A program made the position numbers and the translations under genes. A stretch of 64,000 nt of DNA from the IMG/VR virus record IMGVR_UViG_3300050500_000418; one strand, written 5' to 3'. Below the pieces are notes generated by a model. It ran no database searches. It was not told the origin of the DNA and was given only the letters and a program-made list of their open reading frames with translations. This document shows positions 250 to 50,564 of this stretch, in pieces; the first letter of the stretch is position 1, and each line of letters opens with the position of its first letter. The DNA comes from a virus.

Positions 250-266
250 CTAACCGCGGTTAGGGT
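250..266 (+). promoter_or_regulatory. cassette variant: CTAACCGCGGTTAG palindrome with -10 TAGGGT (261-266)
   Basis: 2-mismatch copy of the recurrent palindrome; ATG 274 lies 7 nt after the -10. Confidence 0.45.
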
Positions 267-273
267 GGGCGGC

Positions 274-594
274 ATGCCCGTAGCTGCCACCGCAGAAGAC
301 GTCCTCTCCGCGATGGAGGAGGCGATGGCCTGCCAGATCGGTCCCACCGGCGCCCGCGACGCCATGGAGGCCCTCCGGCATGCCGAGCTCGCCATCATCG
401 TCATGACGCCCGACGAGGCCCGCCACCTGGGCCGCTACAACCAGGCCATGCGTGACCTCCTCAGCCACTCGTCGAAGTGGTCGTACATCCCCGCCAACTT
501 CCTGGACGGTCGCGACGAGGACCCCGCCATCGAGGCGCAGGACCTCCTCGAGAAGGCCGTGCGCGCCCTCAACTCGGACCCTGACCGTGGCTGA
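274..594 (+). CDS. hypothetical protein (leaderless start)
   Basis: ATG 274 in frame of ORF-track 265..594, 7 nt after -10 hexamer, no SD. Confidence 0.6.
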   Translation: MPVAATAEDVLSAMEEAMACQIGPTGARDAMEALRHAELAIIVMTPDEARHLGRYNQAMRDLLSHSSKWSYIPANFLDGRDEDPAIEAQDLLEKAVRALNSDPDRG

Positions 595-862
595 CCTCCA
601 CCCGTACGCGGAGGCCGCAGCCTTCTACTGCCACGCCCTGGGCCTCCCGGCCGGAGACTTCCTCCCCTCGGATGTGCGCCAGGATCGCGCCGATCCGGGG
701 CCGCCCATCGACCCCGGCCCCCCGGAGGAGGCGCCCGTGCTCGGCGGCCGCCGCGAGCTGATGCTGGGCATCTGGCCCGCCGGCCGCGGCGGTGAACCCC
801 TCATCGTCGAGGCCGTCTACGACGAGCCGGGTGACTGCCCCGGCCACGAGGCCCCCGCATGA
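587..862 (+). CDS. hypothetical protein
   Basis: GTG 587 in frame of ORF-track 452..862; 8-nt overlap with upstream gene. Confidence 0.5.
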   Translation: MADLHPYAEAAAFYCHALGLPAGDFLPSDVRQDRADPGPPIDPGPPEEAPVLGGRRELMLGIWPAGRGGEPLIVEAVYDEPGDCPGHEAPA

Positions 863-1371
863 GCCCGGGCGGCATCGAGGTGACGCATGGAGAGGTCACC
901 GAGCACGTGATCATCATGGAGGTGGCCGGCCAACCCGTCATCGTGGTCGGCACCCAAGGCGGCGATGAGGTCGCGGACGCTGCCCAGAAGATCGCCGAGG
1001 CCCTCCACGCTGAAGCCGGCCAGCCCGTGCCCATCCTCATCGACCAGGTCACGAAGGACGTGCGCCAGCTCGTGGGCGTCACCAACTACGGCCCCCGCTT
1101 GACCCCGGCGCCGCCCGGCCAAGGCCAGGGCCGCTACTTCCTCGTCGTCCTCAACAACGACGGCCTGCGTCACTGGCGGGAGGGCCCCGGCCGAGGCGTC
1201 CCCCGCAACCGCCAGATCATCGCTTACACCAACACCCCCGACGGCGCGGACAGGTTCCGCGGGCACCGCCTCAGGGAAGGCGACCAGCTCATCTCCTGGG
1301 GCGCCTGGATGACGGGCCGCTACGCCAACCGTGTCCGCAACGAGGTCGCCAACATCCAGAGGCCCGGCTGA
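859..1371 (+). CDS. hypothetical protein
   Basis: ORF track; ATGA overlap with upstream stop; strong GC3. Confidence 0.6.
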   Translation: MSPGGIEVTHGEVTEHVIIMEVAGQPVIVVGTQGGDEVADAAQKIAEALHAEAGQPVPILIDQVTKDVRQLVGVTNYGPRLTPAPPGQGQGRYFLVVLNNDGLRHWREGPGRGVPRNRQIIAYTNTPDGADRFRGHRLREGDQLISWGAWMTGRYANRVRNEVANIQRPG

Positions 1372-2132
1372 TGCGCGCCATCCCCATCCCCGACCACATC
1401 GCCAAGCACCTAGGCGGCCGACGCGCCATCTTCGGTGAGCCCGGCGACCCGACCCGCACCGACGTGCGCCCCTGCGAGTACCTGGCCACCCCCTCCCAGC
1501 TTTACCCCCACCGCTTCGCATACACCGCCCTCATCGAGCTGGAACCGGAGGAGCGCACCGCGATCGCTGAGGGCGCCCAGATCCTCCTCGTCCTCGATGG
1601 CGCCGAGGTGCCCTGGGCCCTCATGGCCTACATCCCCCCGCCACCCCCCCGACGCCGACCCGCCCAGGGAGACCACATGAGCCGTGCCCGTCTTGTAGCG
1701 ATCCTCACCCTCGCCGCGCTGGCGCTGTCCTGCGCCGCCATCATCCTGGCCGGCTGCGCCTCATCCGAGTCCACCAGCACCAGCGGCGAGCCCTGGTCCG
1801 CCGAGTCGGCTGACCCCGACTTCCTGCGCCGCGCCGCGGATGTCCTCGCCAACGCAGACGAGCACGTCCGCGGCTGGAACGTGGCCGTCGTCCTCGCCGA
1901 GGACGACGAGGGTTACTCGGCGCGGTGGGTCGTCCTCGATGACGCCGGTGAGCTGACGATCCTGGAGCCGGCCTACACCTGCAACGACGATGACACCACC
2001 GAGGAGGGGGACCTGTACCTGATGCTCTCCCCCGGCGACCTCATCGCGTGGGACCCCAAGGGCAACGACACCCGCCTGTGCACCGCCGAGGTTGACGTGA
2101 CCGCGGTGGGCGCGGCGTTGCCCCCGGCATGA
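1371..2132 (+). CDS. hypothetical protein with internal signal-peptide/lipobox-like segment (..LALSCAAIILAGC..)
   Basis: ORF track; TGATG overlap; internal ATG 1677 (MSRARLVAILTLAAL..LAGC) could be an alternative lipoprotein start. Confidence 0.55.
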   Translation: MRAIPIPDHIAKHLGGRRAIFGEPGDPTRTDVRPCEYLATPSQLYPHRFAYTALIELEPEERTAIAEGAQILLVLDGAEVPWALMAYIPPPPPRRRPAQGDHMSRARLVAILTLAALALSCAAIILAGCASSESTSTSGEPWSAESADPDFLRRAADVLANADEHVRGWNVAVVLAEDDEGYSARWVVLDDAGELTILEPAYTCNDDDTTEEGDLYLMLSPGDLIAWDPKGNDTRLCTAEVDVTAVGAALPPA

Positions 2133-2626
2133 GCAGCGACCACGACGCCGTCCTCGAGGAGGTGGCCGATGTCGTCGTCGCGTGCGCCGATGCCATCGGC
2201 CGGGCCGGGGCCCTCGACTTCACCGTGGGGCACCTCGACGATGACGTGCCCGTGCACATGGCCCGCTGGTACGCCCAGGCCACCTGGCAAGGACGACGGG
2301 TCATCATCGAGAACCAACAGTCCCCGGCGCATGCCTGTGACCGCCTCGTCCGCCAGATCCTGGAGGGTGGCGTCTGCAACCACTGCCTGCGGCCCATCAC
2401 CCTCGGCCGCTACCACCCCGCCCAGTGCGTCTGGAGGCGCACCGGCGACCGGTGGGACCGGACGTGCCTGGACCAGCCCGACATCGGCCCCGGCTGGGAG
2501 CGCATCGGCAAGATGATCCGAGCCGTTCCGGGTGGCCCCGCTGACCCGGCCCGGCCTCCGGTGAAGGGGAGCCGCCGACGCAAACCCGGTCACCGATCCG
2601 GCAAGAAGGGCAAACGCCGTGGATGA
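2129..2626 (+). CDS. hypothetical protein (Lys/Arg-rich C-terminus)
   Basis: ORF track; ATGA overlap with upstream stop. Confidence 0.55.
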   Translation: MSSDHDAVLEEVADVVVACADAIGRAGALDFTVGHLDDDVPVHMARWYAQATWQGRRVIIENQQSPAHACDRLVRQILEGGVCNHCLRPITLGRYHPAQCVWRRTGDRWDRTCLDQPDIGPGWERIGKMIRAVPGGPADPARPPVKGSRRRKPGHRSGKKGKRRG

Positions 2627-2871
2627 CTACAAGGAAGGCCACGCCCGTGCCTGAGATGCTGCACCTGCCCGCCAGCCTGGCCACAGTCCTCACCGTCGGC
2701 GCCGGGTCCTACGCCATGCCCGGCTGCGCCGGTGGCACCTGGCTCGACACGGACCTCCACGCCAAGCTCCTGGTCGACGCCTTCGGCCTCGGGGGCCTCG
2801 GCCCGGACGGGTACCGGGAGATCATCACCACCGACAACCACTGGTCCGCCTGGGCACCGGGGCCATCGTGA
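2623..2871 (+). CDS. hypothetical protein
   Basis: ORF track; ATGA overlap. Confidence 0.5.
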   Translation: MTTRKATPVPEMLHLPASLATVLTVGAGSYAMPGCAGGTWLDTDLHAKLLVDAFGLGGLGPDGYREIITTDNHWSAWAPGPS

Positions 2872-3110
2872 TGCCAAAGGGCCACCCCAAGCTCCGCAAC
2901 CAGAAGATCAACAAGCGCTACCGGCGCCTCGTGGAGGCGGCCATCGCCCGCGGGTGGGTCCTGTCCTATGAGGGCAAGCACCCCAAGCTCACCGCACCCA
3001 ACGGCGACGTGGCCACGCCCATCCCCTCCAAGGACCACCAGGGCCTCGAAGCCCGCTTCCGCAAGCTCCTCACGACCCACTCCACCTTCCTGGAAGACCC
3101 CCTGGCATGA
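2868..3110 (+). CDS. small basic protein (only weak HicA-like resemblance)
   Basis: ORF track; GTGA-type overlap; ..YEGKHPKLTAPNGDVATPIP.. pattern. Confidence 0.5.
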   Translation: MMPKGHPKLRNQKINKRYRRLVEAAIARGWVLSYEGKHPKLTAPNGDVATPIPSKDHQGLEARFRKLLTTHSTFLEDPLA

Positions 3111-3316: not shown

Positions 3317-3981
3317 CGGCCGAGCGCTGCCCCGCCTGCGGCCACATGGCCGATATCGACCACGACGACACCACCGGCGCCGGCCGCTGGTCCTCCCACC
3401 CCGCCTCGACCGAGCAGCGCATCGGCGAGGAGCAGCATCCCGCCCGCTGGGATGACGACGAGGACCCGCCTCCCCCGCCCACCCGCGACTGCGCCACCTC
3501 GTGGCTTGATGTCCGCCTCGTGCCCCCAGCGGCCGAGCCGGCCGGCGAGTCGTGCCCCTGGCCGAGCTCGGCCATGAAGGTCACCCTCGCTCTGGCCCGC
3601 TTCTGGTACTCCCTGCCCCACCAGTCCACCGGCGGCATCTACCACGTCGTCCTCGATGACGGGAACATCGAAGCCCACTTCGTGGAGCACTGCCGCGACG
3701 AGGCCATCACCGCCGGCTACGAGCTGGGCATCGAGCTCGGCCAGCGCCTCATGGGCCTCACCTACGGGCAACGCTGGTGGGTGTACCGAGCACTCTCGGA
3801 GAAGGCGTGGCTGGAGCTGGGCGTCCGGGCCTACCAGGTGGGCTGGACGATCGCGAACATCACTGACCCGATGATCCGTGGCGTCCTGCAACCCCACGTG
3901 GACCGGCACGGCCACCTCCCCCACGACTTCGACTTCGACCGGGACCACCCGTGGACGCCCGCCGAGGAGTCACCCACTTGA
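3313..3981 (+). CDS. hypothetical protein
   Basis: GTG 3313 (GTGA overlap) in frame of ORF-track 2968..3981; stop TGA lies inside the next -35 TTGACC. Confidence 0.6.
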   Translation: MTAERCPACGHMADIDHDDTTGAGRWSSHPASTEQRIGEEQHPARWDDDEDPPPPPTRDCATSWLDVRLVPPAAEPAGESCPWPSSAMKVTLALARFWYSLPHQSTGGIYHVVLDDGNIEAHFVEHCRDEAITAGYELGIELGQRLMGLTYGQRWWVYRALSEKAWLELGVRAYQVGWTIANITDPMIRGVLQPHVDRHGHLPHDFDFDRDHPWTPAEESPT

Positions 3982-4007
3982 CCGAACCCACTAACCCGGG
4001 TTAGCGT
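3978..4007 (+). promoter_or_regulatory. promoter/operator cassette: -35 TTGACC, CTAACCCGGGTTAG, -10 TAGCGT
   Basis: Exact palindrome 3991-4004; 18-nt -35/-10 spacing; ATG 4014 6 nt after -10. Confidence 0.65.
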
Positions 4008-4013
4008 CTGGGT

Positions 4014-4376
4014 ATGAGCACGCAGCCCACCACCGACTGCCACGCCGCCTTTCCCGGGCACGTGCGCAGCCACTCCCACAACTCCTGCCCCGACTGCGGC
4101 GGCTGGATCGACGCCCCGGCCGACCCGCCCACCACCACCTACGAGGCGATCTTCCCCAAGGCCCGCATGGCCGACGAGCTCGCCGAGCGCATCACCACCA
4201 TGCCGTACGGCGCCACCAACGTCGTGCACCAGCCCCGCACCCGCAAGGTCATCTTCGACGGGCCGGCCACCCGGGCCTACCGCATGGACATCGCCGAGAC
4301 CATCGGCTACTTCGGGTCCCCGCCCAGCGGCCCCGTGGCCACCCTGGACGGCATCCCCACCCCCCGCTCCTACTAG
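4014..4376 (+). CDS. hypothetical protein (leaderless, MST.. start)
   Basis: ORF track; ATGAGCAC directly after cassette. Confidence 0.65.
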   Translation: MSTQPTTDCHAAFPGHVRSHSHNSCPDCGGWIDAPADPPTTTYEAIFPKARMADELAERITTMPYGATNVVHQPRTRKVIFDGPATRAYRMDIAETIGYFGSPPSGPVATLDGIPTPRSY

Positions 4377-4431: not shown

Positions 4432-4513
4432 TCCGCGTCTCGGGCCTACACTCACCCCTGTGACCCGGGCCGCCCTGCGCCGAGAACGAGAGCGTCGACA
4501 TCACGCTCACCTC

Positions 4514-4588
4514 GGCGCGGTCGTCTAGCTGGCCCAGGACCCCCGGCTTTCAACCGGGACAACGCGGGTTCGATCCCCGCTCGCGCCG
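4514..4588 (+). tRNA. tRNA-Glu (anticodon TTC)
   Basis: Hand-folded cloverleaf: acceptor GGCGCGG/TCGCGCC, D-arm TCGTCTAGCTGGCCCAGGAC, anticodon loop CTTTCAA, T-arm GCGGGTTCGATCCCCGC. Confidence 0.85.
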
Positions 4589-4597
4589 CCCAGCGAT

Positions 4598-4668
4598 GCC
4601 CCCATCGTCTAGTGGCAGGACAGCACGTTCTCAGCGTGCAAGCGCGGGTCCGATTCCCGCTGGGGGCA
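4598..4668 (+). tRNA. tRNA-Glu (anticodon CTC)
   Basis: Acceptor GCCCCCA/TGGGGGC, anticodon arm GCACG-TTCTCAG-CGTGC, T-arm GCGGGTCCGATTCCCGC. Confidence 0.8.
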
Positions 4669-4673
4669 CCCAA

Positions 4674-4745
4674 GCCTTCATAGCTCAGCGGAGAGAGCAG
4701 CGGCCTACGGAGCCGTGTGCCCAGGTTCGAGTCCTGGTGAGGGCG
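4674..4745 (+). tRNA. tRNA-Arg (anticodon ACG)
   Basis: Acceptor GCCTTCA/TGAGGGC (one G-U), D-arm GCTCAGCGGAGAGAGC, anticodon loop CTACGGA, T-arm CCAGGTTCGAGTCCTGG. Confidence 0.8.
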
Positions 4746-4746
4746 C

Positions 4747-4819
4747 GGTGGCCGTAGCTCAGTGGTAGAGCGCCGGATTGTGCCCCCGGATGCCACGGGT
4801 CCGATTCCCGTCGGTCACC
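4747..4819 (+). tRNA. tRNA-His (anticodon GTG), candidate
   Basis: Extra 5' G(-1) opposite discriminator C as in tRNA-His; loop TTGTGCC. Weakened by an A-C mismatch closing the anticodon stem and C at position 37. Confidence 0.6.
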
Positions 4820-4836
4820 CCAACCCCCCCACCCCG

Positions 4837-4853
4837 CTAACCGGTGTTAGGGT
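4837..4853 (+). promoter_or_regulatory. cassette variant CTAACCGGTGTTAG with -10 TAGGGT
   Basis: 3-mismatch palindrome copy; ATG 4860 6 nt after -10. Confidence 0.45.
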
Positions 4854-4859
4854 CGGCGC

Positions 4860-5450
4860 ATGCTCCTACACCTGACCGAGGTGCACGCCCCCGGCGGCCG
4901 AGGCCCCCGACCCGTGCGCATCAACCCCGAGGCCATCGCCATGTACCGAGAGCCGGGAGGCACGGCCGGCTCCCCCGACGGGGCCGGTACCTACATGAGC
5001 CTCATCGGCGACCGGGGCCTCTACCTGGCCGAGACCCCCGAGCAGATCGACGAGGCGTGGGAGCGCATCTACCCCACCTTCGACATCGAGGACCGCGTCG
5101 AGGTGGCTGTGGGCCTCATCGAGGACATCACCCTGCCCCTGGACACCGTGCGGGCCGGCGATGACGGCAGCCTCGTGGCCACCGGCACCCTGTCCGAGGA
5201 GTGGCTCGCCGCCCACCCCGTCGTCGCTGAGCGGCTGCGCACCGCCAGCGCCGATGACCCGCAGCTCGTCGAGGTCAACCTCGACGACATGGACCTGGAC
5301 GCCACCGAGGCGGAGCGTGGCGTGCGCCTCGTCATCGAGCGGCGCGACCAGGGCGCCGACCTCAACGCCTGGACGGAGGTCTACACCCTGTGGGACCGGG
5401 AGGTCCCCGTGGGCACCTTCCCCGACTACCGCATCACCCCCGGCCCGTGA
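4860..5450 (+). CDS. hypothetical protein (leaderless)
   Basis: ORF track; ATG immediately after cassette. Confidence 0.65.
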   Translation: MLLHLTEVHAPGGRGPRPVRINPEAIAMYREPGGTAGSPDGAGTYMSLIGDRGLYLAETPEQIDEAWERIYPTFDIEDRVEVAVGLIEDITLPLDTVRAGDDGSLVATGTLSEEWLAAHPVVAERLRTASADDPQLVEVNLDDMDLDATEAERGVRLVIERRDQGADLNAWTEVYTLWDREVPVGTFPDYRITPGP

Positions 5451-6422: not shown

Positions 6423-6438
6423 CTAACCCGGGTAAGGT
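6423..6438 (+). promoter_or_regulatory. cassette variant CTAACCCGGGTAAG with -10 TAAGGT, upstream of tRNA-Gln
   Basis: 1-mismatch palindrome copy; no start codon follows; next feature is the tRNA at 6552. Confidence 0.45.
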
Positions 6439-6551
6439 CCACCACCGCGGGCGGGTAGGGCGCCGGGGCGCCGGCCACCGATCCTGCGCCCAGGGGCGCC
6501 GCCCTCCGGCCATCCGCTGGAGCGGCGGCGGCCCGCCCGCACCCCACACCT

Positions 6552-6624
6552 TCGCGGGTAGTTCAATCGGCAGAACGCCAGCCTCTGGAGCTGGATGTTG
6601 GAGGTTCGAACCCTCCCCTGCGAG
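6552..6624 (+). tRNA. tRNA-Gln (anticodon CTG)
   Basis: Acceptor TCGCGGG/CCTGCGA (one G-U), anticodon arm CCAGC-CTCTGGA-GCTGG, T-arm GGAGGTTCGAACCCTCC. Confidence 0.8.
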
Positions 6625-6806
6625 CCGGGACCGGAGGCTTCCCCCTCTGGGCCACGGGCCTGCCTGTGGCGGAGGCTGGGAGCTGGCGCGTCAGTGCGGC
6701 CTCTGGTCCTGACCCTTCCCTGCCCGTCACACCGGAACACCAGCAGGCCCGGCGCCGGGTCCGAGCGTGGCCAGGAGGCGGGCAAGGGAAGCCGGCCCCC
6801 CGTCCA

Positions 6807-6823
6807 CTAACCCGTGTTAGTGT
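6807..6823 (+). promoter_or_regulatory. cassette variant CTAACCCGTGTTAG with -10 TAGTGT
   Basis: 1-mismatch palindrome; ATG 6830 6 nt after -10. Confidence 0.5.
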
Positions 6824-6829
6824 AGGGGG

Positions 6830-7222
6830 ATGCTTACCCCTGACATCGTCGAGTGGATCAACCAGGACCTCAACTACACCCGCCCCGGGTGGAAGGTGTC
6901 CGCCGCTGAGGTGCCCTGCCCTCACGTGGACGTGGATGGGCAGTGGCCCGTCCTCTTCGTGTCGTACGTCGAGGCGGATACCACGCCCGGCGGGACGGGC
7001 GCCCCCTTCCCCCAGACCCGGACCATCCTCATCGACCCCCGCCTCGTCGGTGACGCCGATGACCTGGCCGCCCTGGTCTTCGGGCACATCCTGTGGAGCG
7101 TCATCCACGAGGAGCGGGAGCGCTTCATGGTCAACGGCGCCCAGCCCTACTTCCCGCACCACACCGCCACCCGCGAGACGTGGGACGCCCGCCGCGGCCG
7201 CGTCCTCGCCCAAGTCGACTGA
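6830..7222 (+). CDS. hypothetical protein (leaderless)
   Basis: ORF track; start directly after cassette. Confidence 0.6.
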   Translation: MLTPDIVEWINQDLNYTRPGWKVSAAEVPCPHVDVDGQWPVLFVSYVEADTTPGGTGAPFPQTRTILIDPRLVGDADDLAALVFGHILWSVIHEERERFMVNGAQPYFPHHTATRETWDARRGRVLAQVD

Positions 7223-7226: not shown

Positions 7227-7256
7227 TCGACACCGCCCGCTAACCACGGTTAGGGT
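7227..7256 (+). promoter_or_regulatory. cassette variant: -35 TCGACA, CTAACCACGGTTAG, -10 TAGGGT
   Basis: 2-mismatch palindrome; 18-nt spacing; ATGAGCAC at 7265. Confidence 0.5.
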
Positions 7257-7264
7257 CAACCGCT

Positions 7265-7801
7265 ATGAGCACCGATCGCGCTGAGGGCCCGGACCCGCTG
7301 TACTGCGCGGCCCGCCCCTGCCCCACCTGCCCCGAGGCCGTCCGCACCCCCGCCGGCATCTGGGCCGCCCACGAGTACGAGAAGCTCGCCGCCTACGACG
7401 AGGACGCCGCCACCGGCCGGGCGCCCTTCGGCGTCTTCCACTGCCACCAGGAGAACGCCACCGGCCGCCCCAGCGTGTGCGTCGGGTGGCTGGGCATCCA
7501 CGGCACCGACGCCATCGCCGTGCGCCTCGCCCTGTCCCGCGGGCAGCTCATCCCCGCTGACGTCGAGAAGGCCCAGGCGACCGACGTCGAGTTGTACCCC
7601 ACCGGTACGGCGGCCCGCGATGCTGGCCTCGCCGGCATCACCAACCCGAGTCCCGAGGCCCACGCCGCCATGGCCCGCCTGGCCCGCAAGGGCGCCGGCC
7701 TGCCACAGACCGAGCACGAGCACGCCCAGGAACCCGCATGTACCACGAGTTGCGCCGCCACCGATGCCGGCGCCGACCCTACGGAACCCGATGCCACATG
7801 A
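7265..7801 (+). CDS. hypothetical protein (leaderless, MST.. start)
   Basis: ORF track. Confidence 0.65.
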   Translation: MSTDRAEGPDPLYCAARPCPTCPEAVRTPAGIWAAHEYEKLAAYDEDAATGRAPFGVFHCHQENATGRPSVCVGWLGIHGTDAIAVRLALSRGQLIPADVEKAQATDVELYPTGTAARDAGLAGITNPSPEAHAAMARLARKGAGLPQTEHEHAQEPACTTSCAATDAGADPTEPDAT

Positions 7802-9371: not shown

Positions 9372-9392
9372 CCAGGGCACTACACAAGGTCG

Positions 9393-9409
9393 CTAACCGG
9401 TGTTAGTGT
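9393..9409 (+). promoter_or_regulatory. cassette variant CTAACCGGTGTTAG with -10 TAGTGT, heads the MC-array operon
   Basis: 3-mismatch palindrome; ATG 9418 8 nt after -10. Confidence 0.5.
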
Positions 9410-9417
9410 GGCCGGCC

Positions 9418-9627
9418 ATGTGTGACAACTCCAGCAACGGCCACGGCTCCGACTCTGACGCCGGAACGGCCGCCCGGGGCGCCGGCCAGGGATCGAGCCT
9501 CTCCGCCATCTTCGGCCGGCCCACCGACCGGACCACGCCCTCCGGGCGCAATGGCCACCGCATCGGCCTCACCCGCCTGCTGACCCTCGACGTGGCCCGC
9601 CGACTCGCCGCGAGGGGGACCGCCTGA
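9418..9627 (+). CDS. MC-array unit 1 (MCDNSSNGHG..)
   Basis: ATGTGT at 9418 in frame of ORF-track 9400..9627; leaderless position. Confidence 0.6.
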   Translation: MCDNSSNGHGSDSDAGTAARGAGQGSSLSAIFGRPTDRTTPSGRNGHRIGLTRLLTLDVARRLAARGTA

Positions 9628-9773
9628 TGTGCGTGGAACGGACCCGCACCGACGCCGACGGCAACGAGGTCACCGAGATCTGGGTCCGCCGCAACCCCTG
9701 GCGTGAGGGGCCGCCGCCCATGCCCCTCACCCGCCTCCTCCGGCGACTCGCCGGCCTGATCCATGTGCGCTGA
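9627..9773 (+). CDS. MC-array unit 2 (MCVERTRT.., 48 aa)
   Basis: Hand translation; TGATGTGC stop/start overlap; below ORF-track size cut-off. Confidence 0.45.
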   Translation: MCVERTRTDADGNEVTEIWVRRNPWREGPPPMPLTRLLRRLAGLIHVR

Positions 9774-10011
9774 GTCGAACGGCCACGGCGGCGACGGCAA
9801 CGCCCAGAGCGCCGTGAACGATCACACCGGCCGCACCACCTGGGAGGGCATCACCCGCCGAGGCCAGCGCCCCGGCCGCCGCCCCTCCGGCGGCAACGGC
9901 CGCGACGGATCCCACCCCCGATGGGGCACCCCCATGACACGCATCAGCATCCGCCGACGGCTGGCCATCCGCCTCGCCGCAGCGAGCCTGACCTACCTGG
10001 CCACCCGCTGA
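9763..10011 (+). CDS. MC-array unit 3 (MCAESNGHGGDG..)
   Basis: ORF track. Confidence 0.55.
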   Translation: MCAESNGHGGDGNAQSAVNDHTGRTTWEGITRRGQRPGRRPSGGNGRDGSHPRWGTPMTRISIRRRLAIRLAAASLTYLATR

Positions 10012-10190
10012 TGTGCGATAGCAGCAACGGCAACGGCCACGGCGCCCCCGGCGATGCCCGCCGCGTCATCGACCACGCCACCCCCGACCGGCGACGCCGG
10101 CACTTCCTGGGCGGCTGGTCCATCCGCCACCGAGGCAACGGCCACCCACCCCAGCCCGCGCCCACCGCACCTGAGCACGAGGACACCTGA
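10011..10190 (+). CDS. MC-array unit 4 (MCDSSNGNGHG..)
   Basis: ATG 10011 (TGATGTGC overlap) in frame of ORF-track 9921..10190. Confidence 0.55.
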   Translation: MCDSSNGNGHGAPGDARRVIDHATPDRRRRHFLGGWSIRHRGNGHPPQPAPTAPEHEDT

Positions 10191-10192
10191 CG

Positions 10193-10444
10193 ATGTGCGA
10201 TGGAAACGACGGCCCCAAGCGGGGCCGCACCGCAAGAGGCTGGTACGGAGAGCAGTACGACCTCCGCACCCGTGAGGAGCGAAGCCGCTACCCCCGCAGC
10301 GCCGGCAACACCAACCCCGAGGGCCCCGGCTGGCAGCCCCCGCCCCCGACCCGCCGCGGCTGGGAGAAGCCCCCTGACCAGTGGATGGGCCGCACCCTAT
10401 GGCCCATCGCACTACTCACCCGCCTCATCCCCCGGAGGACCTGA
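10193..10444 (+). CDS. MC-array unit 5 (MCDGNDGPKRG..)
   Basis: ORF track; TGAcgATGTGC junction. Confidence 0.55.
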   Translation: MCDGNDGPKRGRTARGWYGEQYDLRTREERSRYPRSAGNTNPEGPGWQPPPPTRRGWEKPPDQWMGRTLWPIALLTRLIPRRT

Positions 10445-10446
10445 CG

Positions 10447-10959
10447 ATGTGCAAGCCCCACCCCACTGATCCCCGCTACTGGTCCAACCCCCCGGACATG
10501 ACCGACCACCCACCACGCGGTGGGATGCAGAACTTCCAGGCCGTCACCGCACCCCTCGTGGCGCTGAGCATCCTCATGGCCTGCACCAACGGCGACGGGG
10601 ATGATGGCGGCGGCCGGCCCGGCCCCCTGGCCCGAGCCCGGGCCTACATGAACGAGCCCATCGATGACGCCCGCGCCCCGCGCAACGGCCCACGCCCGGC
10701 GCCGCCCTTCCACTGGGCCATCCCCGCCGCGCGGGGCCTCCTCCTGATGTGCACAGGCGGTGATGAGAGCGACGACGTGTCCGGGGGTACCCCGCCGCGC
10801 CCCGGCTGGCCGAGCCGCAACGAGGCTGACCAGACGGCACCCCCGGGCGGCTGGGGCAAGTTCAGGATCAGGCCCAAGGGCACGCACGGCCCGTGGAACT
10901 TCCGGCGCATCCTCGACCTGGCCCTGCACCGCCACCCCGCCTACAACCGGCGCGCCTGA
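10447..10959 (+). CDS. MC-array unit 6, composite (MCKPHP.. + signal/lipobox-like LVALSILMAC-TNGDGDD + in-frame MCTGGDESDD)
   Basis: ATG 10447 in frame of ORF-track 10381..10959; TGAcgATGTGC junction; internal in-frame CTGATGTGC at 10744. Confidence 0.55.
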   Translation: MCKPHPTDPRYWSNPPDMTDHPPRGGMQNFQAVTAPLVALSILMACTNGDGDDGGGRPGPLARARAYMNEPIDDARAPRNGPRPAPPFHWAIPAARGLLLMCTGGDESDDVSGGTPPRPGWPSRNEADQTAPPGGWGKFRIRPKGTHGPWNFRRILDLALHRHPAYNRRA

Positions 10960-11483
10960 TGTGCAAGCCCCGCCCCGGTCCCCGGTCCTACCGGGGACCG
11001 GGCGAACCGCAGGGAGGCCTCGACCCCCACCTCAGGGCCAGGACCGCCCAACCCTCCAACGATCGGAGACCGACCATGTGCGACCCCGCAGACCGCGGCC
11101 CCTCCCAGACCATCGAACGACGAGGCGCCCGGCGAGCCCACGATGTCACCACCGGCCGCGAGGACTGGTGGAAGGGCCACGGCTTCATCCCCCTCGCCGT
11201 GCTGGCCCTGGTGACTCTGGCTTGCCCCAACGGCGATGACGGCAACGGTGACCCCGCCGCTCCCCTGCGCGACGTGGACCCCTCCCAGGCCCCGCCCCCG
11301 CGGACCTTCCGGCTCATGACGTGGCTTCGCCAGTCGACCACCAGCGATGGGGGCAACCTCCTCCGCCAGGGCCGACCGGTCGCGTGGTTCCGGTGGACGT
11401 TCCTGGACCTGGACCGGCACGCCCAGGGCTGCCAGTGGGTCCGCTTCCTGCGGGCCCTCGGCTACCGCCGGACGGCCGCGTGA
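10959..11483 (+). CDS. MC-array unit 7, composite (MCKPRP.. + in-frame MCDPADR.. + LAVLALVTLAC-PNGDDGNGD)
   Basis: ATG 10959 (TGATGTGC overlap) in frame of ORF-track 10893..11483. Confidence 0.55.
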   Translation: MCKPRPGPRSYRGPGEPQGGLDPHLRARTAQPSNDRRPTMCDPADRGPSQTIERRGARRAHDVTTGREDWWKGHGFIPLAVLALVTLACPNGDDGNGDPAAPLRDVDPSQAPPPRTFRLMTWLRQSTTSDGGNLLRQGRPVAWFRWTFLDLDRHAQGCQWVRFLRALGYRRTAA

Positions 11484-11620
11484 TGTGCCGGGGCAAGGAC
11501 AACCCCTACATCAAGCGCCCGGCCCCGCCGCCCTCGACCAGCGCGGCCGCTACGCCCCGAGCCCGGCGATCGAAGTGGATCGCCCCCTTCCGGCGCGTCC
11601 TGGCCCTGAGGGCCGCGTGA
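11483..11620 (+). CDS. MC-array unit 8 (MCRGKDNPY.., 45 aa)
   Basis: ATG 11483 (TGATGTGC overlap) in frame of ORF-track 11321..11620. Confidence 0.5.
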   Translation: MCRGKDNPYIKRPAPPPSTSAAATPRARRSKWIAPFRRVLALRAA

Positions 11621-11757
11621 TGTGCGGCCACCAGCAGGAGCCGCCCCCGCCGCCGCTCAAGCCCCCCCAGAAGACCGGCCTCGGCCTCGTGAGCGAGCGG
11701 CGCGGGTGGCTGGGCATGATCGTGCGGCTCCTACGCCGCCGGCCCATCATCGCCTGA
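11620..11757 (+). CDS. MC-array unit 9 (MCGHQQEPP.., 45 aa)
   Basis: ATG 11620 (TGATGTGC overlap) in frame of ORF-track 11347..11757; same length as unit 8. Confidence 0.5.
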   Translation: MCGHQQEPPPPPLKPPQKTGLGLVSERRGWLGMIVRLLRRRPIIA

Positions 11758-38356: not shown

Positions 38357-38363
38357 CATCGGT

Positions 38364-38809: not shown

Positions 38810-38810
38810 C

Positions 38811-38839: not shown

Positions 38840-38846
38840 CTTCCCT

Positions 38847-39098
38847 ATGAGCACGACGCACCGAGTCACGAAGCGAGAGATCCCCGCCGAGCGGGTCATG
38901 GAGCTGTTCGCCATGGGCGTTGAGTCCGTCAACGGGGTGGCCGAGCACATGATCGGGCGGACCGTGATGGTCGAGTCGTTCGGCCGGTTCCTGACGGGCC
39001 AGGTCGTGGCCATCGACTTCGACTTCGGCCGCACGGACTTCGTCGTCGCCGGCCAGGGCTTCGAGGTCACCCGCCCGTGGGCGCTGGTCGCCTTCTGA
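38847..39098 (+). CDS. hypothetical protein (leaderless, MST.. start)
   Basis: ATG 38847 in frame of ORF-track 38811..39098. Confidence 0.6.
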   Translation: MSTTHRVTKREIPAERVMELFAMGVESVNGVAEHMIGRTVMVESFGRFLTGQVVAIDFDFGRTDFVVAGQGFEVTRPWALVAF

Positions 39099-39987: not shown

Positions 39988-40172
39988 CCCTCCCCTCGAT
40001 CCGCGACGCCTTCGTCTGCGACCCCGGCTGCCCTCGCTGCGCCGGCTCCGGGCACGTCTGCGAGGAGCACCCGGACTGTCCGTGGGATGAGGGTGAAGGG
40101 TGCTGCGGCGCCCCAGGCATGCCCTGCAACCCCGCCTTGCGCGGTGATCCCTCGACCTGGCCGGCCCGCTGA
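39984..40172 (+). CDS. small Cys-rich protein
   Basis: ORF track; GTGA overlap; 9 Cys in 62 aa. Confidence 0.5.
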   Translation: MTLPSIRDAFVCDPGCPRCAGSGHVCEEHPDCPWDEGEGCCGAPGMPCNPALRGDPSTWPAR

Positions 40173-41380
40173 TGCCCGGCCCCCACCGCGTCATCGTCGG
40201 CGAGCCCCCGGCAGAGCCGTCTCCCGCGGCGCCGCGCCGCTACGGTCGCCTCGTGCGCAACCACGACCCCTTCGCCCACCACCGCCGCTACGACGTGCCC
40301 CAGCTCCCCGGCGGGCGCCTCGAGGATGGCCAGGAGCGCCGACCGCAGGTCAACATCCTGGCGTGCGTGGACCGGTACCCGCCCATCCAGAACGCCGGCG
40401 CCGAGTGGATGCTCCACCACCTGCTGCGTGACAGCGTGCGCCGCGGGCACCGGGCCATCGTCGTCACGGCCACACCGGATGCGTACACCCTGGAGGGCGT
40501 CCGCGTCGTGCCCCACCGCGACCTCCACGAGCTGGCCCCCCAAGCCGACGTGATGGTGGGGCACCTCATGTGGACCCGTGAGGCCGTCGAGACGGCCGCC
40601 CTCTACCAGCGGCCCCTCGTGTACCTGGTGCACAACGACGCCCAGCTCCACCACTGGAAGCTCACGCCCGACAACCTGACGATCGCCGTGGCCAACTCCC
40701 GGTGGATCGGCGCCTCATCGGTGGCCAAGTGGGAGCAGGCCCGGGGCGCGGTGGGCCTGGTGCGGCCGCCGGTCCTCATCGATGACTACGCCCTCGCCCG
40801 GGACCCGTGGACGGCACCCTTCGTGACGCTCTCCAACCCCACGAAGGAGAAGGGCGCCGAGGTCTTCTACACCCTGGCCCGCCGGCCGCCGGCGCGCCGC
40901 TACCTGACCGTGGAGGGCGCCTACGGCGAGCAGACCCGCCCCAACCACACCACCCCGAACGTCACGTGGCAGCCCCAGACGGGCGACATGCTCAACGACG
41001 TGTACGCCCACACCCGCGTCCTCCTCGTGCCCTCCTGGTACGAGTCGTGGGGCCGCGTCGCCACCGAGGCGATGTGCTCGGGCATCCCCGTGATCGCGAA
41101 CCCCACCGACGGCCTCGTTGAGGCGCTGGGCACCGCCGGCATCTTCGTGGACCGGACCGACATCGACGGGTGGCAGGCCGTCCTCTCGATGCTCGACGAC
41201 GAGGACTACTACCGCCGGGTCAGCCTCGCCTCCTACCAGCGCGCCTCAGAGCTGACCCTCCAAGCGCAGGGTGACCTCAACGAGTGGAACCGCATCCTCG
41301 AGACGTGCGGCGCCCTCAACCCCTCCACCATGACCGCACCCCCGATCGCTGAGCCGGCGCAAGTAGCGTCACCGGTATGA
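40172..41380 (+). CDS. glycosyltransferase, GT4 / group-1 type
   Basis: ORF track; TGATG overlap; ..LLVPSWYESWGRVATEAMCSGIPVIA.. (E-x7-E region). Confidence 0.7.
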   Translation: MPGPHRVIVGEPPAEPSPAAPRRYGRLVRNHDPFAHHRRYDVPQLPGGRLEDGQERRPQVNILACVDRYPPIQNAGAEWMLHHLLRDSVRRGHRAIVVTATPDAYTLEGVRVVPHRDLHELAPQADVMVGHLMWTREAVETAALYQRPLVYLVHNDAQLHHWKLTPDNLTIAVANSRWIGASSVAKWEQARGAVGLVRPPVLIDDYALARDPWTAPFVTLSNPTKEKGAEVFYTLARRPPARRYLTVEGAYGEQTRPNHTTPNVTWQPQTGDMLNDVYAHTRVLLVPSWYESWGRVATEAMCSGIPVIANPTDGLVEALGTAGIFVDRTDIDGWQAVLSMLDDEDYYRRVSLASYQRASELTLQAQGDLNEWNRILETCGALNPSTMTAPPIAEPAQVASPV

Positions 41381-43333: not shown

Positions 43334-43360
43334 TCGGCCGGGTTGCGCGCACGGGTGGTC

Positions 43361-43374
43361 ACCCGGGTTAGGGT
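43361..43374 (+). promoter_or_regulatory. half-cassette ACCCGGGTTAG with -10 TAGGGT; leadered transcript
   Basis: Right half of palindrome; SD GGAAGGAAG precedes ATG 43410. Confidence 0.4.
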
Positions 43375-43409
43375 CGCTGGCTTACCAACCCCCCAGGGAA
43401 GGAAGCCCT

Positions 43410-44165: not shown

Positions 44166-44774
44166 ATGATCGCTGTCCTCGGGGCCGGCCCGCACGGCCG
44201 CCAGATCGCCGCCATCCTCCGCGACGAGGGCCGAGGCCCGGTCCTCTACGATGACGACCAGGGCCAGCACCCCCACCTCCTGGACTGCGTAGAGGGCGCC
44301 AAGACGCACCCCTGGATCGCCGGCCAAGCATGGCCCGAGCAGCGCCGGGCCCTCGTCCAGCGCCTCTACGACCGGCGCATCGTGGGACCCCGGGGCGGCG
44401 GCGTCATGCTCTGGCCCGGCGCTCACCTCGGCGATGAGGTGACCATCGGCCACCACACCCACATCCAGTACAACGCCGTCATCGCCCACGGATCGAGCGT
44501 CGGCGAGTTCACCCTCATCTGTGCCGGGGCCGTCCTGGGCGGGGACACGACCGTCGGCCCTGACGTCGTCATCGGATCCAACGCGACCGTGTCCCACGGC
44601 GGCATCACCATCGGCGCCGGGGCCTTCGTCGGGGCCGGCGCCGTGATCATCGATGACGTGCCCCCGGGGGCAGTGGTCGCCGGTAACCCCGGTAAGGTCC
44701 TGGCGTATGACTGGTCCTACCGAGACATGGCGCAAGGCCGCCGAGGACGCGCTGGGGTGGCTCCACCCCTCTGA
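44166..44774 (+). CDS. sugar O-acyltransferase, NeuD/PglD-like (left-handed beta-helix)
   Basis: ATG 44166 in frame of ORF-track 44127..44774; N-terminal IAVLGAGPHG then hexapeptide repeats ..VGAGAVIIDDVPPGAVVAGNPG.. Confidence 0.65.
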   Translation: MIAVLGAGPHGRQIAAILRDEGRGPVLYDDDQGQHPHLLDCVEGAKTHPWIAGQAWPEQRRALVQRLYDRRIVGPRGGGVMLWPGAHLGDEVTIGHHTHIQYNAVIAHGSSVGEFTLICAGAVLGGDTTVGPDVVIGSNATVSHGGITIGAGAFVGAGAVIIDDVPPGAVVAGNPGKVLAYDWSYRDMAQGRRGRAGVAPPL

Positions 44775-48989: not shown

Positions 48990-49019
48990 TTGACCGAGGC
49001 CCCTAACCCGGGTTAGTGT
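48990..49019 (+). promoter_or_regulatory. cassette: -35 TTGACC, CTAACCCGGGTTAG, -10 TAGTGT
   Basis: Exact palindrome; 18-nt spacing; ATGAGCAC at 49027. Confidence 0.7.
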
Positions 49020-49026
49020 CGTCGGC

Positions 49027-49476
49027 ATGAGCACGATCACCGTCTACCACGCTGAGCTCGGCCAGGGCGCCTTCGAGCGCTTCACCGACTCCACGAAGAT
49101 CCAGGGCGTCTACCAGTACGAGCGGGACGTGACAGCCCTCAACGTCCACGAGGTCCTCGAGAACGCCTTCTACCTGTTCAACCAGGACACTGACGCGATC
49201 CCCCACGACGCCCGCTGCACCGACGACGAGTGCATCCTTGTCGGCTGCGCCCGCTTCACCGCCGAGTCGTACCGGACCGTCCGCCTGCGCTCCCTGTCCG
49301 TCGGCGACGTCGTCGTCATCGGCGGCAAGGCCGGTGGCCCCCTCCCGGACGGGACCGGCCCCGGCGAGCAGGCGTACGCCGTGGCGTCCATGGGCTTCGA
49401 CCCGGTGCACGTGCTCCCAGAGCAGATCCTGCCCCTGGAGGTGCACCGCCCCTCGGACGCTCTGCGCTCCGTCTGA
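49027..49476 (+). CDS. hypothetical protein (leaderless, MST.. start)
   Basis: ORF track. Confidence 0.65.
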   Translation: MSTITVYHAELGQGAFERFTDSTKIQGVYQYERDVTALNVHEVLENAFYLFNQDTDAIPHDARCTDDECILVGCARFTAESYRTVRLRSLSVGDVVVIGGKAGGPLPDGTGPGEQAYAVASMGFDPVHVLPEQILPLEVHRPSDALRSV

Positions 49477-49484
49477 CCACCACA

Positions 49485-49517
49485 GAGGCCGCCGGACCTG
49501 CGGGGTTCGGCGGCCTC
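49485..49517 (+). terminator. intrinsic-terminator-like hairpin
   Basis: 10-bp stem GAGGCCGCCG/CGGCGGCCTC. Confidence 0.5.
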
Positions 49518-49531
49518 ACCGCGCCCGCCCC

Positions 49532-49561
49532 TTGACCGACGCCGCTAACCCGGGTTAGTGT
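49532..49561 (+). promoter_or_regulatory. cassette: -35 TTGACC, CTAACCCGGGTTAG, -10 TAGTGT
   Basis: Near-identical to copy at 16451; ATGAGCAC at 49569. Confidence 0.7.
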
Positions 49562-49568
49562 CGTGGGT

Positions 49569-50564
49569 ATGAGCACGCAGCCCCTCCCAGACGGCGCCAT
49601 CGAGATCCCCGGGACGATCGCCTACATCGACCCCATCCGTGGCCTCACCCGCCGCCCCGACTGGCGCCAGGTCATCGACGAGGAGATGAACCGCCCCACC
49701 ACCTGCGGGACCTGCGGCGAGACCTTCCCCTCCGTGGCCGACGAGTTCTTCCACGACTGCGAGCGGCTGGCCAGCGTCCGGGGCTTCATCCCCGGTGACG
49801 CCTCCCAGATCCGCCCCTCCGACGACGTCGACTACCGCCCGTGGGGTGATGGCGAGCCCGGCTCCGGCACGGGCCGGGGGCGCCACCGTGCCCCCCTCAG
49901 CGACGCGCAGGGCGGCCTCATCGAGCGGCTCCTCCACGAGATCGATCCGCTCATCACCGCCGCCGACGTCATGGACGTGTGCGCCGACCTGACCGGCGGC
50001 CGCGACGGCACCGCCTCAGCGCTCATTGACGACCTCTTCGCCCTGAAGGCTTACCTGGCCGGCCCCGCCCCTGCCCCGGCGCCGCTCCCCGCCGGGTGCC
50101 GCCCCAACCGCTACGCAGGCAACTGCCGCCACTGTGGCCAGCACATCGCCGAGCAGGCCGGCCTCCTGTGCAAGGACGCCACCGGACGATGGACCGTCGA
50201 GCACAACGGCACCTGCCCCACCGCTCCGGCCATCAACACCGTGGCCGCCACCGTCCCGGAGGGGCACTACGCCCTGCCCTCCACCGGCGAGAACGACCTG
50301 GTCTTCTACCGCGTCGACCGGCCCACCGAGGGCGCCTTCGCCGGCCGGGTCTTCGTCAAGATGATCGTGGGCGGCAAGCCTGACCGCAACGTGCGCCGCG
50401 ACGCCATCGCCGGCATCCTGGCCCGCATCGAGGCCGCCGGCCCTGAGGCTGCGGGCGAGCTGTACGGCCAGGAGATCGGCCGGTGCTGGAAGTGCAACCG
50501 CACCCTCACCGACGAGGCCTCCCGCGCCGCCGGCATCGGCCCGGACTGCGCCACCCGCGTCTAG
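49569..50564 (+). CDS. hypothetical protein with Cys clusters and C-terminal CWKC..LTD..S..GIGPDC motif (DUF6011-like)
   Basis: ATG 49569 in frame of ORF-track 49563..50564; leaderless. Confidence 0.6.
   Translation: MSTQPLPDGAIEIPGTIAYIDPIRGLTRRPDWRQVIDEEMNRPTTCGTCGETFPSVADEFFHDCERLASVRGFIPGDASQIRPSDDVDYRPWGDGEPGSGTGRGRHRAPLSDAQGGLIERLLHEIDPLITAADVMDVCADLTGGRDGTASALIDDLFALKAYLAGPAPAPAPLPAGCRPNRYAGNCRHCGQHIAEQAGLLCKDATGRWTVEHNGTCPTAPAINTVAATVPEGHYALPSTGENDLVFYRVDRPTEGAFAGRVFVKMIVGGKPDRNVRRDAIAGILARIEAAGPEAAGELYGQEIGRCWKCNRTLTDEASRAAGIGPDCATRV

Follow-up and report, generated by a model that had tools for sequence, protein, structure and literature searches.

A Reused Promoter Cassette with a Candidate Operator and Predicted Leaderless Starts in a 101-kb Actinophage Genome

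Introduction

Why should one 12-bp palindrome recur throughout a phage genome, always pointing the same way as the genes and mostly standing just ahead of a start codon? The question is raised by a 64,000-nt stretch of DNA (G+C 71%) from the IMG/VR virus record IMGVR_UViG_3300050500_000418, which we call the window and whose numbering is used below unless a contig or the circular map is named. A first-pass annotation of this stretch had described a cassette, reused about 25 times, in which a promoter, the palindrome TAACCCGGGTTA and a leaderless start codon are combined, and had proposed that a single dimeric regulator gates all of the copies. With a probability of about 60%, we read the cassette as a sigma-A-type promoter for leaderless mRNA with a built-in operator for a dimeric regulator, which would probably be a repressor.

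Results

The Palindrome and Its Spacing

The window is part of a complete, circularly permuted phage genome of 101,203 bp; the circle was closed by walking outwards from the window genes, using their flanks and the flanks of two proteins recovered by homology search. TAACCCGGGTTA occurs exactly 15 times in the window compared with 0 times in 100 dinucleotide shuffles, and allowing up to three mismatches gives 36 window matches where 8.0 ± 2.7 are expected. All 15 exact copies were confirmed at the positions first given for them, as were nine near-copies (251, 4838, 6424, 6808, 7241, 9394, 13490, 21628 and 48292, each with one or two mismatches) and the right half-sites, which lie near 17174, 19338, 31301 and 43359. 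In the whole genome, 37 sites have at most two mismatches (19 exact, 9 with one and 9 with two), compared with about 2 in shuffles.

The symmetric core, TAAC-N4-GTTA, is found 31 times in the 101,203-bp genome, with ~0.1 copies expected from base composition. Its centre is CCGG in 19 copies and one of seven other tetramers (CGCG, CGGT, CACG and CAGG among them) in the remaining 12. At spacings of 0–3 and 5–10, TAAC and GTTA are paired nowhere in the genome, everted and direct arrangements are equally absent, and a single intact half is found at one site only. Of the 53 TAAC and the 46 GTTA words of the whole genome, 31 each lie in TAAC-N4-GTTA sites and, generic GC-rich coding words aside, k-mers of the palindrome are the most over-represented 10-mers of the genome. 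Every copy has the same direction as the genes. The full dyad, C-TAAC-N4-GTTA-G, is 14 bp long and spans approximately −23 to −10, with its centre at about −16.5 when the start codon is taken as +1 (probe sequence CTAACCCGGGTTAG; half-site-mutant counterpart CGCACCCGGGTGCG). A literature search with the 12-mer returned cloning primers only.

Promoter Layout and Predicted Leaderless Starts

The arrangement of −35, −10 and start codon described in the first-pass annotation holds on alignment of the copies, which read CTTGAC(C/A) - N8 - C TAACCCGGGTTA G (T/G)(A/G)TC - N5-6 - ATGAGCAC(G/C). The −35 is TTGACC, TTGACA, TCGACA or TAGACN and lies 18 (sometimes 17) nt upstream of a −10 that in most copies is TAGNNT (TAGTGT, TAGTAT, TAGGGT, TAGCGT or TAGCAT) and begins with the 3′ TAG of the palindrome. 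That the −10 always starts with TAG, as had been stated, is mostly but not strictly so, given TACTAT at 15473, TAATGT at 17435 and TACCGT at 21628. The complete layout is present at 20 window sites and, genome-wide, at 27 of the 37 sites with up to two mismatches: the palindrome stands between −35 and −10, and an ATG or GTG follows 6–8 nt after the −10, at the predicted +1. The copies at 48292, 31301, 51373 and 27222 lack a credible −10.

These elements are those of a sigma-70-type (SigA/HrdB) promoter, with a TTGACN-like −35, a 16–19-bp spacer and a TANNNT −10. When the 13–27 kb region was scanned with the E. coli consensus, the four matches were all cassettes (0.4 expected). At four sites, the right half has T in place of its inner G (TAACCGGTGTTA or TAACCCGTGTTA), which creates the extended −10 TGT-TAGNNT, and all four are without a usable −35. 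An extended −10 that would offset a missing −35 is the trade-off expected of real promoters. The claim that the cassettes are sigma-70-type promoters for leaderless mRNAs was supported by every in silico test that we ran.

Are the start codons real, and are they leaderless? In ~20 cases, the cassette start codon is also the start chosen by an independent gene caller (gene calls on public contigs). No Shine–Dalgarno (SD) sequence was found at the cassette starts (SD score 0–2), and one is present in 54 of the 141 genes overall. Both marks of leaderless genes, a start codon at the predicted +1 and an absent SD, are therefore found here. Exceptions with leaders are the copies at 21628 and 43359 (~50–60 nt) and that at 64539, upstream of Gam, which has an SD.

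The first codons are also conserved. In 82.7 kb, 16 copies of the octamer ATGAGCAC were counted where 0.7 are expected, with none on the other strand, and 15 of the 16 are cassette start codons; for the whole genome, the figures are 19 octamers, none on the opposite strand, and 18 cassette starts. The cassette-driven proteins are almost all ORFans, and paralogy among them was rejected, as no mutual similarity is detectable. Since 18 of 19 octamers are cassette starts in front of such dissimilar proteins, the conservation appears to be regulatory rather than a remnant of gene duplication. The conserved 5′ end, AUGAGCAC, may be a specific enhancer of leaderless initiation; ATGTCGACC is an example of a synonymous recoding of ATGAGCAC.

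A Promoter with a Proposed Built-In Operator

How might such a cassette work? The host primary sigma factor (SigA/HrdB, sigma-70-type) would recognize T(T/C/A)GAC(C/A), an 18-bp spacer and TAGNNT. Transcription would start at, or 1–2 nt before, the A of the ATG, giving an mRNA without leader or SD, and translation would follow the leaderless route that is common in Actinobacteria, with the start ATGAGCAC(G/C) as part of the conserved module. The dyad occupies the spacer between the hexamers and contributes the opening bases of the −10, and one dimeric, sequence-specific protein, which could be phage- or host-encoded, is predicted to bind it. The bound dimer would block access of sigma region 2/3 or RNA polymerase (RNAP), so that ~30 promoters on the 101-kb genome would switch together, and this would either turn off early and moron-like genes at a given time or amount to repression of the immunity type. 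A dyad-symmetric site overlapping the core promoter is what is found at repressor operators of the phiC31 CIR or BPs OR type, and the cassette has such a site. The proposal of an operator for one dimeric regulator has good grounds in the strict symmetry, a centre at about −16.5 and conserved half-sites, but no DNA-binding protein was tied to the site.

This last point weighs against the operator reading, and so do several others. The reading rests on sequence inference throughout; a lytic phage has a less obvious need for ~30 repressor sites; and the conservation of ATGAGCAC is left unexplained by it. Furthermore, the Arthrobacter phage Wheelbite, which carries the same dyad, shares almost no proteins with the window phage, so a common phage-encoded binder is not evident. 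As for candidates, Pfam and PHROG searches with the small proteins gave sub-threshold helix-turn-helix (HTH) matches only, among them the product of 5128–5496 on contig L037 (E about 0.01); a TerS-like HTH protein of 260 amino acids was also noted. Neither open reading frame (ORF) first put forward as a regulator gained support: 12528–12773 has no Pfam or PHROG match, and 19362–19616, in a stretch without a called gene, has no PHROG match. A protein with a ribbon-helix-helix-looking N-terminus, an AbrB/antitoxin-like protein of 59 amino acids (L037, 7889–8068; PHROG E = 5e-4) and proteins with an HTH-looking C-terminus were also considered and set aside, none having reached a family threshold. 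A weak, likewise sub-threshold resemblance to HicA toxins was noted for the 79-amino-acid protein of 2871–3110 (Pfam E = 0.016).

The Dyad in Other Phages and in Bacteria

Is the dyad peculiar to this phage? The first-pass annotation did not note that the palindrome also stands in promoters of unrelated actinophage lineages. Pattern scans of IMG/VR recovered the motif from a small number of such lineages, and the only one represented by isolate-derived genomes that we identified is Arthrobacter cluster AL, whose cultured members Wheelbite, Laroye and Waltz carry the dyad; the paper describing these phages does not mention such a motif. Wheelbite (host Arthrobacter sp. ATCC 21022) has 8 TAAC-N4-GTTA sites in 59.9 kb compared with 0.18 expected, or 12 compared with 0.75 when one outer mismatch is allowed. 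All are intergenic, lie 37–156 nt upstream of annotated genes and fall in promoter spacers, with the typical layout TTGAC(A/C)-N2-TAACCNNGGTTA-N3-4-TANNNT; two degenerate copies, one of them at lysin A, are in the window-type register with a leaderless start. Waltz, 84% identical to Wheelbite, keeps the sites with another centre. A concerted change of the Waltz sites (to TAACCCCCGTTA) was rejected as an explanation, this being ordinary variation of the N4 centre.

Two IMG/VR genomes show a similar arrangement, CCCTTGACAGACC-TAACCSSGGTTA-GG-TAGAGT in 3300032322_000399 and TTGCAACC-TAACCSSGGTTA-GGT-TANNNT in 3300013308_000381. In both, the dyad lies in the spacer 2–4 nt upstream of the −10 and does not overlap it. 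The distance from the dyad to the −10 thus differs by several bp from one lineage to another, which makes a polymerase contact or a geometry-dependent activator site unlikely. It behaves as an independent protein-binding site placed to occlude the promoter would, and the variable register fits steric occlusion.

Could the binder then be a protein of the host? According to this alternative, which we consider unlikely, phages exploit a conserved host transcription factor (a BldD-like or XRE-type dimer, a LexA-like or a LacI-family protein), and host physiology would gate the phage promoters. The lineages whose promoters contain TAAC-N4-GTTA do have hardly any proteins in common: between the window phage and Wheelbite, BLAST and phmmer find only a TerS-like HTH protein, an HNH protein, a VRR-NUC-like protein and an IbrA (PAPS-reductase/DUF3440)/ParB-like module. 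That no phage regulator was found in the Pfam and PHROG searches points the same way. Yet the IMG/VR scans recovered the motif in few actinophage lineages only, and the BldD, LexA and LacI patterns each depart from the site. The Gram-positive LexA box, GAAC-N4-GTTC, has the same N4 spacing and three of the four half-site bases, but its outer base pair is G/C rather than T/A, and the genome has 0 copies of it. The half-sites also agree with the TNAC/GTNA of the 13-bp BldD box, TNAC-N5-GTNA (PMC4151990), but the N4 spacing is one bp short of it, and the 101 kb contain 0 TAAC-N5-GTTA and 3 TNAC-N5-GTNA. As for the LacI family, its hinge binding would call for a central CG, which the sites do not conserve.

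A scan of bacterial genomes with the 14-mer gave mostly single, apparently chance matches among those listed, and no actinobacterial genome or prophage with multiple copies was among them; the prevalence of chance matches speaks against a host factor. Exact TAACCCGGGTTA adjoins LacI-family regulator genes in Lentzea, Micromonospora (twice) and Microbacterium oleivorans (L049, L062, L090 and L112), which speaks for a host factor; it lies upstream of a large secreted protein in Lentzea and occurs as two copies 32 bp apart in Microbacterium. These bacterial copies are probably operators of that LacI subfamily. As a guide to a host regulon, the scan was dropped, being uninformative beyond the LacI-gene adjacency in the three genera.

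A broader idea is that TAAC-N4-GTTA is a shared "actinophage operator", recognized by one conserved trans-acting protein in otherwise unrelated lineages. These would comprise cluster AL of the Arthrobacter phages, two or more lineages from IMG/VR, and the phage described here together with its relatives. We regard this as speculative and unlikely. If true, the binder would be a host factor common to diverse Actinobacteria or the product of a small regulator gene travelling between phages, and a single signal, from the cell or from a phage, would control the transcription of early genes and morons in different phage families.

Repression or Activation?

The palindrome might instead be a positive element, bound by a phage activator or an RNAP-appropriating factor in the manner of MerR or MotA, without which these promoters would not fire. 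The copies at 251, 4838, 6808, 13885 and 17435 have no recognizable −35 and may need such help, and the long conserved block is reminiscent of phage-specific promoters. However, most copies without a −35 have an extended −10, and a dimer centred at −16.5 would clash with sigma. A MerR-type site requires a spacer of 19–20 bp and a fixed register; the spacers here are 17–18 bp, and the register shifts between lineages. Since many copies are near-consensus promoters (TTGACC-18-TAGTAT) without need of an activator, a repressor operator is favoured, and we judge activation to be improbable.

Cassette Copying and Conservation in Relatives

Could the repeats simply be the result of copying? The cassettes fall into sub-families (−7721/7241/14706/15473; 3992/16888/26128; 16465/38341/49546) that share the −35-to-dyad spacer and/or codons 2–6 in mosaic combinations; for example, 3992 and 49546 both run on as ...ACGCAGCCC, and 16888 and 38824 both as ...ACGACGCACC. 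Such sub-families would fit duplication or gene conversion. Taken to its limit, this would mean that the repeats arose mainly from cassette mobility through recombination or gene conversion, as at T4 PeSL and moron boundaries, and that the palindrome has no binding function. Besides the mosaic sharing, the genes behind the cassettes agree with this, being unrelated ORFans of which many are inserted among structural genes, and so do the perfect 11–17-bp G+C hairpins that precede six cassettes in a moron-like layout. These six look like insulated, moron-like units because of their hairpins. Upstream terminators as a general feature of the cassette were rejected as not significant (6–7 of 27 with a strong hairpin compared with a 16% background).

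Copying alone nevertheless fails to explain an invariant palindrome beside an 8-nt spacer and a discriminator that vary within the genome, the exclusive N4 spacing, or the same palindrome at other registers in unrelated phages. It also leaves the conservation in relatives unexplained. A metagenome scan with the dyad and ATGAGCAC found two short contigs from Hainich groundwater, L277 and L278, the latter with four cassettes in 2.8 kb. L277 is ~70% identical to the 75–77 kb region of the genome and has the two orthologous cassettes, again 1 kb apart. In each of the two promoter alignments, the identity is concentrated in C-TAAC..GGTTAG, the −10 and CATGAGCAC, whereas the −35, spacer, dyad centre and discriminator have diverged. 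The retention of the half-sites at orthologous promoters of so divergent a relative indicates selection. In more distant IMG/VR relatives (27–50% amino acid identity), GTAGAC-N8/9-CTAACCCG(G/T)GTTAG stands upstream of the orthologous Gam and DUF6011 genes, which in some cases are leadered with an SD and in others begin leaderless with ATGACA. The earlier suggestion that whole cassettes were copied is thus borne out by the mosaic sub-families, but conservation in relatives reflects selection and not only recent copying. Cassette mobility and operator function are compatible, and probably both apply; mobility without any binding function we consider quite improbable.

One more module requires mention. 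At ~77.7–81 kb of the circular map (L254, 15627–19501) lie genes for ParB-like, PAPS-reductase/DUF3440 (IbrA-like), ParB_N and glutamine-amidotransferase proteins, with genes for a cupin and a C5 cytosine DNA methylase farther downstream, at ~88–90 kb (L256, 6218–7867). Wheelbite has counterparts of the IbrA-like and ParB-like genes (gp2, gp6 and gp7), and the region may be a DNA-modification or regulatory module. A link between IbrA/ParB and the palindrome was considered and dropped, as the IbrA homologues retrieved from IMG/VR are in low-GC phages without the palindrome. That the site is a modification or restriction target, or an RNA hairpin or terminator, is hardly credible: although it contains CCCGGG, the phage encodes a C5 cytosine methylase and PAPS-reductase/ParB-like genes (outside the window) and an IbrA/ParB-like module is common to Wheelbite and one other palindrome-bearing lineage, the centre varies while the outer TAAC/GTTA is invariant, IbrA homologues occur in phages that lack the palindrome, the site lies upstream of the predicted start point, and a perfect 12-nt palindrome cannot form a stable hairpin.

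Positions of the Cassettes

All copies in the window are on the + strand. The full cassettes that start with ATGAGCAC comprise 3978–4021 (TTGACC-N18-TAGCGT, palindrome at 3992, octamer at 4014), 14692–14736 (TCGACA-18-TAGCAT, 14706, 14729), 15459–15503 (TCGACA-18-TACTAT, 15473, 15496), 15941–15984 (TAGACC-18-TAGTAT, 15955, 15977, preceded by a perfect 17-bp hairpin), 16451–16495 (TTGACA-18-TAGTGT, 16465, 16488) and 16874–16917 (TTGACC-18-TAGTAT, 16888, 16910, with an upstream hairpin). Farther on are 26114–26157 (TTGACC-18-TAGTAT, 26128, 26150) and three cassettes with TTGACC-18-TAGTGT, namely 38327–38371 (38341, 38364), 48990–49034 (49004, 49027) and 49532–49576 (49546, 49569). The last has an upstream 15-bp hairpin and drives a DUF6011 protein, whose orthologues in relatives retain the palindrome although their genes are leadered and have an SD.

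The octamer is also the start at 7227–7272 (−35 TCGACA, TAACCACGGTTA at 7241, TAGGGT, octamer at 7265, DUF6283 gene), 23610–23655 (TAGACG, palindrome at 23624, TAGCAT, octamer at 23648) and 38810–38854 (palindrome at 38824, TAGTAT, octamer at 38847, with a 14-bp hairpin directly upstream). The −35 is weak at 237–281 (TAACCGCGGTTA at 251, −10 TAGGGT, leaderless ATG at 274) and at 13871–13915 (palindrome at 13885, TAGGGT, ATGAGCAA at 13908). It is missing at 4824–4867, right after a tRNA cluster (TAACCGGTGTTA at 4838, extended −10 TGT-TAGGGT, ATG at 4860), and at 17421–17465 (palindrome at 17435, TAATGT, GTG at 17458, upstream 14-bp hairpin). An extended −10, TGT-TAGTGT, is also present at 6794–6837 (TAACCCGTGTTA at 6808, ATG at 6830). 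The cassette at 9380–9425 (TAACCGGTGTTA at 9394, TAGTGT, ATG at 9418) heads an array of small genes, and that at 13476–13519 (TTGAGC, TAACCCCGGTTA at 13490, TAGGGT, ATG at 13512) follows tRNA-Pro; the ORF behind it has 63 codons and was not called by the gene caller.

The near-copy TAACCCGGGTAA at 6424–6441 comes right after a stop codon, with a possible −10 TAAGGT, 110 nt ahead of tRNA-Gln, which it possibly serves. At 17174–17204 only the right half is left (TCACGTGGGTTA), with TAGCGT and an ATG at 17197, and at 43359–43376 the right-half copy TCACCCGGGTTA with TAGGGT lies 51 nt ahead of the gene at 43410. A promoter-like copy follows the large terminase gene (21614–21643; TAGACA, TAACCAGGGTTA at 21628, TACCGT), with a leadered gene 60 nt on. 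The weak copy TAACCCCGGTAA at 44684–44714 is within a gene end, ahead of the ATG at 44707 of the next gene, and is a doubtful promoter.

A perfect promoter–operator copy without a start codon (31333–31362; TTGACC-18-TAGTGT, palindrome at 31347) faces a non-coding stretch. An extra near-copy, AAACCCGGGTTA at 31301–31312, lies 46 bp upstream of this palindrome without a −10 of its own and is a possible auxiliary operator. Directly downstream, 1.35 kb (31358–32700) are without coding signal and may correspond to a long non-coding RNA of the phage, Y-RNA-like or otherwise. Within this stretch, a tRNA-like module scores 33.5 bits (E = 4e-5) against Rfam YrlA (Y RNA-like), short of the gathering score of 69; the best match is 31753–31820 and the tRNA-like part 31792–31874. 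There is also a weak tRNA match, and a terminator-like hairpin lies at ~32475–32503.

On the circular map, cassettes are spread over the whole early region, from 64 kb round to 20 kb. Those among the structural genes (23.6, 26.1, 38.3, 38.8, 49.0 and 49.5 kb) stand before small inserted genes, so the "virion region" copies serve mostly inserted ORFan genes rather than structural genes, a point missed in the first-pass annotation. It had also stated that no copy occurs after 49.6 kb. This is correct within the window, save for a doubtful two-mismatch site at 51373 that is the only candidate in the 50–64 kb tail/lysis block and the capsid gene, but not beyond it: the next perfect cassette lies at 64106, only 106 bp outside the window, and the series runs on at 64539, 72393, 75473, 76477 and 87042.

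Genomic Context

The genome was assembled independently in two samples, as ERZ27257655:k141_4629075 (101,343 bp) and, circularly permuted, as ERZ27257760:k141_4352694 (101,344 bp). Nearly every gene lies on the + strand, and C exceeds G on the coding strand (GC skew about −0.13). The phage is an uncultured, large siphovirus-like actinophage. It has no nucleotide-level match among GenBank phages (megablast with 20 kb and with the 50-nt cassette consensus), and its closest cultured relatives have only about 36% amino acid identity in capsid and terminase. No integrase, repressor or Cro-like protein is present in precomputed Pfam tables covering nearly all of its genes, and the phage is apparently non-temperate.

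The large terminase is encoded at 20129–21616, the major capsid protein of 646 amino acids at 32732–34672 and the tape measure at 52392–56432, and the lysis block occupies ~60–64 kb. The capsid protein shares ~37% identity with its counterparts in Arthrobacter phage Atuin and in Gordonia GMA2/Forza-type phages. Its alignment to other actinophage capsids is confined to residues ~255–635, and a scaffold or protease-like domain may be fused to it in the form of the first 250 residues. Genes for two GDSL-lipase-like proteins and a group-1 glycosyltransferase lie amid those for structural proteins (23917–24621, 36324–37904 and 40172–41380). Further round the circle are Gam, ERF, DnaC-like, helicase, ParB/IbrA-like, C5-methylase and many ORFan genes. 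The 920-amino-acid ResIII/Helicase_C helicase (L254, 10653–13415; ~72.7–75.5 kb of the circular map) has a weak LAGLIDADG_3 match, which may mark an intein or a homing-endonuclease insertion.

Six tRNA genes (Glu-TTC, Glu-CTC, Arg-ACG, His-GTG, Gln-CTG and Pro-CGG) lie at 4513–4822, 6552–6626 and 13401–13474. As cassettes directly follow the tRNA cluster and tRNA-Pro, these tRNAs appear to be the ends of transcription units. The array at 9418–12300 consists of at least 12 consecutive small ORFs of 45–170 codons, each starting with ATGTG(C/T) (Met-Cys) and mostly joined by overlapping stop and start codons (cTGATGTGC). The first is the leaderless gene of the cassette at 9394, and no clear paralogy was found among the ORFs past their N-termini.

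Comparison with Known Systems

How does the cassette compare with multi-copy sites known from other phages? Phages phiC31 and L5 have 18–30 dispersed repressor sites per genome, and the likeness lies in a short site repeated across the genome through which one protein controls many transcription units (PMC4557955). The L5 stoperators, however, are 13–14-bp sites without symmetry, oriented with transcription, to which a monomer binds, and they exert their effect on elongation in transcribed DNA, whereas the site in the window is a strict, perfect dyad in the promoter core, upstream of the predicted start. phiC31 and L5 are also temperate with known repressors, whereas here neither repressor nor integrase appears in the Pfam tables, and they lack the fixed leaderless start of the cassette.

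A palindrome of the same length is known from mycobacteriophage BPs, which has the 12-bp operator CGACATATGTCG at five regulatory regions (PMC4557955). The sequences are unrelated, the BPs palindrome is one half of a composite site, and BPs has five regions and no conserved start-codon block compared with the ~30 copies here. Cluster O mycobacteriophages come closer in number, with more than 30 invariant 17-bp TGTTCGG-N3-CCGAACA dyads per genome, mostly at gene boundaries, and with predicted SigA promoters for leaderless mRNAs (PMC4351075). Many invariant dyads with a variable centre are thus common to both, but sequence and spacing differ, and the Cluster O repeats are unoriented, not reported in promoters and in about one third of cases within genes, whereas the dyad here keeps a fixed register with −35, −10 and start codon.

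In the start-associated sequence of Cluster K phages, the conserved stretch just ahead of the start codon takes in the ribosome-binding site; in the cassette there is no SD, and the conserved block is the promoter. Morons and the T4 PeSL cassettes are autonomous promoter–gene(–terminator) units of unknown function between conserved genes, with similarity confined to the regulatory cassette. The cassettes described here, which are mosaic, resemble them in having unrelated genes and a shared regulatory part, but they add an operator-like dyad and a leaderless start, have a clear upstream hairpin at six units only and belong to another host and promoter type. On plasmid RK2, the ParB-family global repressor KorB acts at about 12 palindromic OB operators at promoters. 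This one-palindrome regulon on a mobile element is a parallel in view of the ParB-like genes in the window phage and Wheelbite, but no link between the ParB-like proteins and the site was found, and IbrA/ParB modules are also found in phages without the palindrome.

Multi-copy regulatory sites were thus known from a handful of actinophages (phiC31, L5, BPs and Cluster O). What is new is the fusion of promoter, putative operator and predicted leaderless start in a ~45-bp unit with a conserved 5′ coding octamer, used ~30 times per genome, and a dyad shared with unrelated lineages, in an apparently non-temperate 101-kb phage. The phylogenetic footprints pinpoint which bases of the cassette matter, and the dyad in cultured Arthrobacter phages makes the operator hypothesis directly testable. 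The cassette is a natural system for studying the timing of ORFan expression in large, lytic-looking actinophages and bears on which sequence downstream of a 5′ AUG promotes leaderless expression. It is also a compact, probably regulatable expression part for high-GC Actinobacteria.

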